The notes under the pieces: generated by a model | The model's input: only the letters and a program-made list of their open reading frames with translations | Told to the model about the DNA's origin: nothing | Database searches by the model: none | Part shown: positions 25,795 to 26,104 of the stretch, in pieces | Numbering within the stretch: the stretch's first letter is position 1 | How the letters are laid out: each line of letters begins with the position of its first letter | Program-made: the position numbers and the translations under genes | UHGV virus genome: UHGV-1993760 | DNA: 42,235 nucleotides | Origin: a virus | Reading direction: 5' to 3' (one strand)

Positions 25795-25869
25795 TGGAGC
25801 GGGTAGCGGGAATCGAACCCGCATCATCAGCTTGGAAGGCTGAGGTAATAGCCATTATACGATACCCGC
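25795..25869 (-). tRNA. tRNA-Gly (anticodon UCC)
   Basis: Hand fold: 7-bp acceptor stem GCGGGTA/TACCCGC, anticodon stem TCAGC/GCTGA with loop CTTCCAA, T-arm GCGGG-TTCGATT-CCCGC, encoded CCA; overall resembles coliphage T4 tRNA-Gly as recalled. Confidence 0.8.
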
Positions 25870-25872
25870 ATA

Positions 25873-25948
25873 TGGTGCCGACTACCGGAATCGAACTGGT
25901 GACCTACTGATTACAAGTCAGTTGCTCTACCTACGGAGCTAAGTCGGC
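25873..25948 (-). tRNA. tRNA-Thr (anticodon UGU)
   Basis: Hand fold: acceptor GCCGACT/AGTCGGC, D-stem GCTC/GAGC, anticodon stem ACTGA/TCAGT with loop CTTGTAA, T-loop TTCGATT, encoded CCA. Confidence 0.8.
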
Positions 25949-25950
25949 AC

Positions 25951-26027
25951 TGGACCGCCACCGGAGACTCGAACCTCGCACTCTCAACTTAAAGGGTTGA
26001 CTCTCTTTCCTGATGAGCTAGTGGCGG
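25951..26027 (-). tRNA. tRNA-like gene, putative anticodon UUU (Lys), with non-canonical features
   Basis: 7-bp acceptor CCGCCAC/GTGGCGG plus CCA, anticodon stem TCAAC/GTTGA with loop CCTTTAA (C at position 33), T-loop TTCGAGT with one A:C mismatch in the T-stem, weak D-stem. Confidence 0.45.
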
Positions 26028-26028
26028 T

Positions 26029-26104
26029 TGGTGGCCCTTGCTGGATTTGAACCAGCGACCTGGCGATTATGAGTCGCTCGCTCTCACCACTGAGCTAAAG
26101 GGCC
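26029..26104 (-). tRNA. tRNA with CAU anticodon (Ile2 lysidine type or Met); resembles E. coli ileX
   Basis: GGCCCTTTAGCTCAGTGGTGAGAGCGAGCGACTCATAATCGCCAGGTCGCTGGTTCAAATCCAGCAAGGGCCACCA folds canonically and is close to recalled ileX. Confidence 0.85.

Follow-up and report, generated by a model that had tools for sequence, protein, structure and literature searches.

A chimeric four-gene tRNA cassette downstream of Q in an Escherichia coli lambdoid prophage, with a non-canonical UUU tRNA of apparent argN descent

Why should a temperate phage carry four tRNA genes between its Q antiterminator and its lysis genes, and does one explanation serve all four? The question arises from the window analyzed here, a 42,235-nucleotide stretch of viral DNA (UHGV-1993760) in which an earlier reading, made from the letters alone, had noticed tRNA genes with the anticodons UCC, UGU, UUU, and CAU at positions 25795–26104. 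Our preferred answer, to which we give a probability of about 70%, is that these genes represent a family of Q-to-lysis cassettes in lambdoid prophages of E. coli and Shigella, which would be chimeric in origin, transcribed from a promoter of its own and codon-supplying, with the gene in the second slot standing apart.

When the whole 42-kb window was searched with ARAGORN, four tRNA genes were called, all on the minus strand at exactly 25795–26104, and none elsewhere. The Rfam tRNA model (RF00005) agreed, and the four anticodons were therefore as first described. The minus strand is the late direction of the phage, and the cassette is oriented that way. Numbered from the upstream end, the genes are a tRNA-Ile2 (CAU) that is an ileZ allele (slot 1, 26029–26104, 72.5 bits), a 77-nt UUU tRNA that we term Lys-like (slot 2, 25951–26027, 33.1 bits), a tRNA-Thr (UGU) copied from thrU (slot 3, 25873–25948, 67.5 bits), and a tRNA-Gly (UCC) copied from glyT (slot 4, 25795–25869, 65.6 bits). 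All four scores exceed the gathering score of the model (29 bits). The corresponding E-values, 1e-15 to 1e-13 for the Ile, Thr, and Gly genes and 6e-6 to 9e-5 for the UUU gene, exclude chance matches in all four cases. With default filters, Rfam overlooked the UUU gene, which emerged only in more sensitive runs. At permissive thresholds, Rfam returned nothing but chance matches around the cassette (Plastid-ycf2 antisense to the tRNAs; mir-983, CyaR, GcvB, and STnc100, all far below threshold). Sequence inspection and model alignments gave each gene a seven-pair acceptor stem, a 7-nt anticodon loop, a GTTCRA T-loop, and G18-G19. The spacers of 1 nt (A), 2 nt (GT), and 3 nt (TAT) and the CCA encoded at the 3′ end of all four genes can be read directly from the sequence, in line with the original description.

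The location of the cassette was likewise as reported. The Q antiterminator (PF06530; 30354–30788) lies upstream, and two holins (24271–24729 and 24006–24335) and an M15 endolysin (23626–24009) lie downstream, all on the minus strand. Beyond the lysis genes are a lambda-type large terminase, an E-type capsid protein, and a contractile tail sheath. The integrase (40922–42235) is 14.8 kb away from the cassette, which bears out the proposal that the tRNA genes are cargo rather than an attachment site. Eleven complete E. coli chromosomes (e.g., strain 08-00022) match the 501 bases around the cassette with 100% identity, so the window is a known E. coli lambdoid prophage that is already in public data. 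In the identical genome, the PGAP annotation lists tRNA-Ile, tRNA-Thr, and tRNA-Gly, with an 80-nt gap where the UUU gene sits.

Slot 1 is identical at 76 of 76 positions to ileZ of phage Stx2a_F349 and at 68 of 76 to K-12 ileX, and its PGAP label is tRNA-Ile. The comparison points to ileZ/ileX rather than to the Met tRNAs, and it upholds the assignment of the CAU gene as a reader of AUA. Slot 1 also has C4:G69 and C5:G68, which we take to be determinants for TilS. A tRNA-Ile2 (CAU) reads AUA after lysidine modification of C34; judged by its sequence, slot 1 is such a tRNA and would read AUA once modified.

The genes in slots 3 and 4 have been copied almost exactly from the host. The tRNA-Thr matches K-12 thrU at 75 of 76 positions, the sole change being A14C. 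The near-universal A14, which partners U8, is retained in K-12 thrU and in most copies of the cassette; its replacement by C14 in the window is accompanied by a score 5 bits below that of the canonical copy (67.5 versus 72.5 bits with RF00005). The tRNA-Gly matches K-12 glyT at 73 of 75 positions, and the two changes constitute a compensatory switch of pair 6:67 from C:G to U:A. The host operon thrU-tyrU-glyT-thrT-tufB contains the near-identical Thr and Gly genes in the same order. However, the cassette has no tyrU, 116-nt spacer, thrT, or tufB, and its genes would be driven by the cassette promoter. It is the absence of tyrU and the 116-nt spacer that places Thr and Gly 3 nt apart. A Salmonella "Tyr-Thr-Gly" match in the phage collection proved to be the host thrU-tyrU-glyT-thrT-tufB locus, and a prophage was ruled out.

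Slot 2 is the unusual member. It aligns over its whole length with the argN gene of Stx phages (∼80% identity), and the differences include one compensatory pair change (30:40, G:C to A:U). The anticodon loop is CUUCGAA in argN (anticodon UCG) and CCUUUAA in slot 2 (anticodon UUU, with C33). This loop agrees with that of host tRNA-Lys at six of seven positions, whereas the remainder of the molecule is unlike lysT. U33 is near-universal in elongator tRNAs, and slot 2 has C there. It also has a C1:G72 pair, the discriminator U73, and an A51-C63 mismatch. The mismatch is common to the whole UUU family and argN; C33 is common to the whole UUU family and was fixed in every copy seen. The allele in the window carries, in addition, a G10-A25 mismatch and a G52-U62 wobble, which arise from two differences from the majority allele (C25A breaks pair 10:25 and C62U weakens pair 52:62). 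Slot 2 therefore departs from the near-universal U33 and from fully paired stems at C33, G10-A25, and A51-C63. PGAP labels the majority UUU allele tRNA-Lys, and the window allele is without annotation in the identical genome. Single-sequence minimum free energy folding produced no cloverleaf for either slot 2 or argN and was uninformative, so energies were calculated on a fixed cloverleaf instead. On these comparisons, slot 2 appears to be a non-canonical, Lys-like UUU tRNA of the argN lineage.

The cassette had been likened to the ileZ-argN-argO genes of Stx phages on the basis of position. The relationship is in fact one of homology, in that slots 1 and 2 are ileZ and a derivative of argN. 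The cassettes of Stx2a_F349, 933W, and VT2-Sakai share with the window their site downstream of Q and before the lysis or toxin genes, their orientation, an identical ileZ, and a second gene of the argN lineage 1 nt away. The conserved predicted promoter ahead of ileZ (TTGCAA-17-TATTAT) is likewise shared. The differences are equally clear: slot 2 has UUU and C33 in place of UCG and U33, copies of thrU and glyT stand where Stx phages have argO (UCU), the cassette is 4.2 kb from Q behind inserted cargo, and no toxin genes follow. Because the slots carry UUU, UGU, and UCC, without the Arg anticodons UCG and UCU, we regard the cassette as a variant and not as the Stx type. A second lambdoid arrangement, the Asn(GUU)/Thr(UGU) pair of SfI, phage 21, Sf6, and ST64T, occupies the same slot and has a Thr(UGU) matched to ACA usage (PMC3636060). 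SfI and the window prophage both have contractile tails. However, the Thr gene of SfI is a diverged phage type with a 4-bp anticodon stem and G39-C40-G41, whereas that of the window is a thrU copy, and the window cassette has no Asn gene. On our preferred reading, ileZ and the argN-derived UUU tRNA stem from the phage lineage, with near-exact copies of host thrU and glyT taking the place of argO.

The distribution of the cassette was explored with two pattern scans of IMG/VR together with public loci, and 136 loci were recovered with argN-family patterns. Since the patterns target the argN family, the counts of gene orders are not unbiased frequencies: CAU-UUU-UGU-UCC was seen in 102 loci, CAU-UUU-UCU in 13, the Stx type CAU-UCG-UCU in 7, and CAU-UUU-UUU-UCC in 5. 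A second lineage has converted a thrU copy into a UUU tRNA. Across 67 distinct sequences, nucleotide diversity is 0.005–0.019 in the four tRNA genes and ∼0.27 in the flanks, which are mosaic rather than merely diverged; the contrast identifies the cassette as a module that is conserved while its surroundings are mosaic. Of 5,426 complete E. coli genomes, 798 (∼15%) have the majority UUU allele. In a pattern search of a collection with one genome per species, the UUU anticodon arm was limited to E. coli and Shigella flexneri; two matches in Bacteroidota were due to chance and are not tRNAs. Two potential associations were rejected. Of 110 loci, only 9 have the AraC-like gene ahead of the cassette, and none has the Q type of the window within 400 nt of it. 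A literature search on ileZ with argN, argO, or prophages found nothing relevant. We conclude that the cassette is a widespread variant of the known lambdoid late-region tRNA cassette, partly annotated in public genomes, and that it is a mobile module, running from promoter to terminator, that moves intact between otherwise mosaic prophages.

The upstream boundary of this module is a predicted σ70-type promoter (26114–26141, minus strand), recognized from a consensus scan and from conservation. It comprises a −35 hexamer TTGATT (26141–26136), a 16-nt spacer, a −10 hexamer TATTAT (26119–26114), and, between this hexamer and ileZ, 9 nt rich in G+C. The scan of the single window gave 9 sites against 8.3 expected from shuffled sequence, i.e., no better. 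Among 38 distinct upstream contexts (129 loci), 36 have TATTAT at exactly −15 to −10 relative to the start of ileZ. Across the contexts, a hexamer resembling a −35 element (TTGCAA, TTGCAG, TTGCGG, or TTGATT) is found 16–18 nt above it, and a G+C-rich 9-mer lies between the −10 element and the tRNA start. Conservation upstream of ileZ starts at about −39; farther up, the contexts are mosaic and unrelated to one another. The context of Stx2a_F349 has the same element, and in the window the element is sited at the 3′ end of an AraC-family ORF (26131–26844). The G+C-rich stretch before +1 is reminiscent of the stable-RNA promoters that are under stringent control. We infer from this conservation that the cassette has its own σ70-type promoter.

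Downstream of tRNA-Gly, the transcript would continue into a structured untranslated trailer of 265 nt (25530–25794, minus strand), which was recognized by folding. The 335-nt segment 25794–25460 folds at −113 kcal/mol (z = −5.3), and a long hairpin at ∼25673–25590 is strand-specific (−41 kcal/mol on the minus strand, −22.5 kcal/mol on the plus strand). An exact-seed search of the trailer for inverted repeats found nothing; the trailer hairpin depends on G-U pairs. A terminator scan identified two hairpins with T-runs that resemble intrinsic terminators (25528–25509 and 25487–25470, minus strand), each with a 7-bp stem containing 5–6 G:C pairs. Over 24800–29400, the scan returned 12 sites compared with 4.0 ± 2.4 in shuffles. 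Tandem terminators had been placed immediately behind the tRNA genes. The hairpins do exist, but they lie 267–308 nt downstream of tRNA-Gly, behind the structured trailer; a start 267 nt away means that they are not immediately adjacent.

These elements suggest how the cassette could be expressed. Transcription would start at the conserved σ70-type promoter, a few nucleotides ahead of ileZ, and yield a single transcript bearing all four tRNAs. RNase P would cut the 5′ end of each tRNA. Because CCA is encoded and the next tRNA begins 1–3 nt on, these cuts would suffice to separate the tRNAs, and 3′ exonucleases would trim the 1–3-nt leftovers behind the CCA. Maturation by RNase P and 3′ exonucleases of this kind is known for some tightly packed E. 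coli operons. Transcription would stop at the two terminators, except when polymerase modified by Q arrives from upstream and reads through them. On this scheme, the cassette would be autonomous, open to transcription in the lysogen and, in addition, by Q-modified read-through.

The proposal that the tRNA genes serve A-ending codons was examined by comparing codon usage in the window (49 ORFs, 11,625 codons) with that of the 100–150-kb region of K-12 (43 ORFs, 14,853 codons). Both gene sets are non-overlapping, uncurated, greedy picks of ORFs, and the baseline is this one 50-kb region. Per 1,000 codons, the window and the K-12 region have, respectively, 7.8 and 2.4 ATA, 14.7 and 5.5 ACA, 14.2 and 6.3 GGA, and 37.8 and 33.7 AAA. 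ATA, ACA, and GGA are thus 2.3–3.2 times commoner in the prophage, and AAA is not enriched. The enrichment fits codon supplementation by three of the genes, and the rationale stands for ATA, ACA, and GGA and fails for AAA; slot 2 is left unexplained by codon supply. The AT-rich cargo genes nearby (35%–42% G+C) use ATA, ACA, and GGA at 39–60 per 1,000 codons. E. coli has one or two genes for each of the tRNAs that read ATA, ACA, and GGA and six for tRNA-Lys. Extra copies of tRNA-Ile2, tRNA-Thr(UGU), and tRNA-Gly(UCC) would therefore boost scarce host tRNAs.

Two observations weaken even this case. ATA, ACA, and GGA are scarce (6 per 1,000 codons) in the major capsid gene, which is likely to be the most highly expressed late gene. 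Moreover, the most over-represented codons of the prophage, AGA (7.5 versus 1.5 per 1,000 in the K-12 region) and AGG (6.9 versus 0.9), are 5–8 times commoner than in the K-12 region and are unserved by the cassette. A bias toward ACA has also been reported for SfI, whose Q-proximal tRNA-Thr(UGU) was likewise ascribed to codon supplementation, and its tRNA-Asn was left unexplained (PMC3636060). A link between the Gly-UCC and Lys-UUU pair and the lambda G/GT frameshift (GGA-AAG) was set aside, because the tail of the window prophage is contractile and not of the lambda type. As for slot 2, the UUU tRNA would most likely be a weak lysine acceptor whose benefit is other than codon supply.

Two accounts of slot 2 were weighed against the cassette reading. 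The first, which we consider possible but rather improbable, is that the gene in the window is a decaying, non-functional relic, kept between useful genes and still supplying sites for RNase P. Its RF00005 score is 11 bits below that of the majority allele (33.1 versus 44.4 bits). The two non-standard pairs (G10-A25 and A51-C63), the G-U wobble, and the replacement of U33 by C33 are all consistent with decay. The cloverleaf, at −16.7 kcal/mol, is 5.6 kcal/mol weaker than that of the family majority (−22.3 kcal/mol) and 6.3 kcal/mol less favorable than the minimum free energy structure. The gene has no PGAP annotation in the identical genome, its diversity (0.0185) is the highest of the four, and variants within the family are evenly divided between those that keep pairs (7) and those that break them (7). 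In the adjoining Thr gene, too, the near-universal A14 is gone.

Several observations argue against the relic account. Slot 2 is retained in the same position in every full-length cassette examined but one, in which ARAGORN made no call, and the UUU gene is present in 798 E. coli genomes. Its diversity, although the highest of the four, is ∼15 times below that of the flanks and comparable in magnitude to that of the other three tRNA genes. The balance of pair-keeping to pair-breaking variants is worse in the Thr gene (2:7), and slot 2 is thus not alone in showing this pattern. Since the Thr gene is undoubtedly of a functional type, its ratio suggests that prophage copies generally carry mildly harmful variants. 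C-to-U changes, which preserve pairing, outnumber the G-to-A changes that disrupt it, and the A51-C63 mismatch has been repaired in one lineage. What may be said of this particular prophage is that it could be letting its cassette decay, given its weakened slot 2 and Thr alleles.

The second account, which we hold to be unlikely, is that the UUU tRNA, and possibly the whole cassette, replaces host tRNAs cut by the nucleases AriB of PARIS, PrrC, and Old of P2. The UUU tRNA would read lysine codons on an Arg-type body that escapes recognition by these enzymes. AriB cleaves E. coli tRNA-Lys(UUU) at U36-A-A-U-C|A41 and also cleaves Thr(UGU) and Asn(GUU); cleavage is abolished by U39A and impaired by A41C and U16C (PMC12409363). 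The tRNA-Lys of phage T5 evades AriB by such changes (PMC12409363, PMC11464382). Old requires paired CNG motifs in the anticodon stem and has thrU as its prime target, and extra host tRNA-ThrU gives little or no protection against it (PMC12445682). PrrC cuts tRNA-Lys 3′ of U33 (PMC2610378); with PrrC170, infection is rescued by a phage tRNA-Lys and barely by that of E. coli (PMC11555353).

Slot 2 shares the UUU anticodon with host tRNA-Lys(UUU), the target of both AriB and PrrC. It has G39-U40-U41, C16, and C33 where host tRNA-Lys has U39-C40-A41, U16, and U33, and its anticodon stem (UCAAC/GUUGA) contains no CNG motif. It therefore lacks the published determinants for AriB and P2 Old and has C33 at the PrrC cut site, which makes an anti-nuclease role possible; on these features, slot 2 should escape all three enzymes. 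The anticodon arm of the Thr gene, in contrast, is identical to that of thrU, without differences at the positions that the nucleases recognize. Because the arm is the host's, the Thr copy should not escape. With this arm in the Thr gene, and with extra ThrU being of little help against Old, the whole cassette cannot be called nuclease-proof.

Other circumstances speak for a role of slot 2 in counter-defense. Codon supply offers no reason for the gene, as AAA is not enriched; 798 of 5,426 E. coli genomes carry it; and a thrU copy has turned into a UUU tRNA in a second lineage. The tRNAs targeted by AriB, namely Lys(UUU), Thr(UGU), and Asn(GUU), are also the ones met repeatedly downstream of Q among lambdoid phages (PMC3636060). 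The parallel with T5 is instructive in both directions. The tRNA-Lys(UUU) of T5, which neutralizes PARIS, and slot 2 both differ from the host tRNA at positions 39, 41, and 16, which govern cleavage by AriB (PMC11464382, PMC12409363). However, T5 is a virulent phage with a recognizable tRNA-Lys of proven function, whereas slot 2 belongs to a temperate phage and is apparently Arg-derived, with C33 and stem mismatches. The phage-tRNA defense papers that we searched for the words temperate and lambdoid made no mention of the tRNAs of such phages.

Against this account, the differences from host tRNA-Lys follow from argN ancestry and need no selection. C33, A51-C63, and U73 may make slot 2 a poor tRNA and a poor substrate for LysRS, and the allele in the window is further weakened. 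The stretch 33–38 is unchanged in the family, but this would occur by chance with a probability of ∼14% (24 variable sites in 77 positions) and is not significant. It is because the differences come free with argN ancestry, and because of the doubts over the charging and use of slot 2, that we rate the anti-defense account low. In its full form, slot 2 would be a lysine-accepting, nuclease-proof stand-in for tRNA-Lys, present in ∼15% of complete E. coli genomes, expressed from the promoter of the cassette, and protecting against PrrC, PARIS, and Old; we think this improbable. It is similarly doubtful that lambdoid phages, and perhaps their lysogens, keep translating by this means when confronted with tRNases carried by rivals such as P2 and P4. 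The origin that the account implies, namely an anticodon switch in an arginine tRNA that was repeated at least one more time on a thrU copy, is to be regarded with the same reserve.

The remaining suggestion, that the genes form a T4-style phage cluster, unlike host operons, that reads the A-ending codons of AT-rich cargo, is very improbable: its tight packing, its A-reading anticodons, and the richness of the nearby AT-rich cargo in ATA, ACA, and GGA notwithstanding, it is contradicted by the homology with the lambdoid ileZ-argN cassette, by the near-identity of two genes with host thrU (75/76) and glyT (73/75), by the equally short spacers of the host lysT operon (2 and 3 nt, at valT-lysW and valZ-lysY), by the encoded CCA that is the norm in host genes, and by cargo that varies from prophage to prophage, as does the AraC-like gene described above, while the cassette stays constant. 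The T4 cluster does resemble it in having several tightly packed, co-transcribed phage tRNA genes. However, no sequence relationship was found, and the cassette, half of whose genes are copied from the host, resides on a temperate phage. Its packing is host-like and not specific to T4.

Ever since the sequencing of the Stx phages, lambdoid phages have been known to carry tRNA genes adjacent to Q; these are usually dismissed as helpers for rare codons. That view fits three of the four genes described here, and to this extent the finding is an ordinary one. The argN-derived UUU tRNA with C33 is the one element of the cassette that merits experiment. It lacks every published recognition feature of the nucleases that cut tRNA-Lys, and codon usage gives no rationale for its presence. 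Should slot 2 prove functional, temperate phages would be using a form of counter-defense whose demonstration has to date been confined to virulent, T5-like phages, and a function could be assigned to a gene that is common in E. coli prophages.

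The cassette begins 26 nt beyond the end of an AraC-family regulator gene (26131–26844, minus strand; 42% G+C), this being the distance to ileZ, and the cassette promoter is situated within the last codons of the regulator gene. Only 9 of 110 loci have this gene ahead of their cassette. Prophage AraC-like regulators are known from EHEC, and the gene may be a candidate member of this group. Upstream of it is an ORF of 144 amino acids (26981–27415, minus strand) that has no Pfam match; a terminator-like hairpin (26994–26977) comes after it. The interval between Q and the cassette also holds a defence-like island (27432–30290) with a G+C content of 35–41%. 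It consists of genes for a DUF262/GmrSD_N protein (27432–28589, plus strand), a MAE_28990-type HEPN protein (28592–29281, plus strand) and a C-5 cytosine methyltransferase (29250–30290, minus strand). Strain 08-00022, in which the cassette is identical, carries a DUF4236 gene in place of the island.

The third gene of the cassette, of thrU type, has a changed anticodon in five IMG/VR contigs (L135:3480–3555, L136:5501–5576, L137:6852–6927, L138:8503–8578 and L140:413–488). In these, G35U converts the anticodon from UGU to UUU and is accompanied by A26G, leaving two UUU tRNAs per cassette. The second gene of the same contigs carries U8C, its 51:63 pair is repaired and its discriminator base is G. 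Because the five cassettes are identical, the double-UUU change was probably a single event. The thrU copy of the window has C14 (at 25935) rather than the near-universal A14. Position 14 is likewise C in the tRNA-Thr(UGU) of phage SfI (L147:1019–1094), which is unrelated and diverged; the agreement at this position may have arisen by chance or may reflect a common adaptation.

In Stx2a_F349 (L002:1281–1320), about 30 nt correspond to the 5′ portion of the SfI/phage 21-type tRNA-Asn (tatttgggtcaatcgtataaaggtcatta). They are located directly past the terminator that comes after Q. The stretch resembles the remnant of an older Asn gene that occupied the same slot.

Within the trailer (25530–25794), 3′ of tRNA-Gly, the minus strand can form a long hairpin (25590–25673) with a predicted stability of −41 kcal/mol (z = −6.6), compared with −22.5 for the plus strand. 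Since the minus strand is far more stable, the hairpin depends on G-U pairs and has the appearance of an RNA-level structure. It matched no Rfam family, and the only matches, found in two phage records, are partial. One possibility is that it serves as an RNase III site, another that it is a small RNA.

A TerB-family gene (24902–25327, minus strand) separates the cassette terminators from the holins. Farther downstream is a gene for a K88-type fimbrial subunit (21298–22122, minus strand; PF02432, E = 3e-58; 45% G+C), which is unusual prophage cargo. It has lysis genes on one side and terminase on the other.

The early region contains gathering-level Rfam matches to C4 antisense RNA (34886–34973, minus strand; 82 bits) and isrK (34998–35074, minus strand; 62.7 bits), which adjoin genes for Ash/Rha-type regulators. 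The two matches make up a predicted antisense immunity element in the style of P1/P7.
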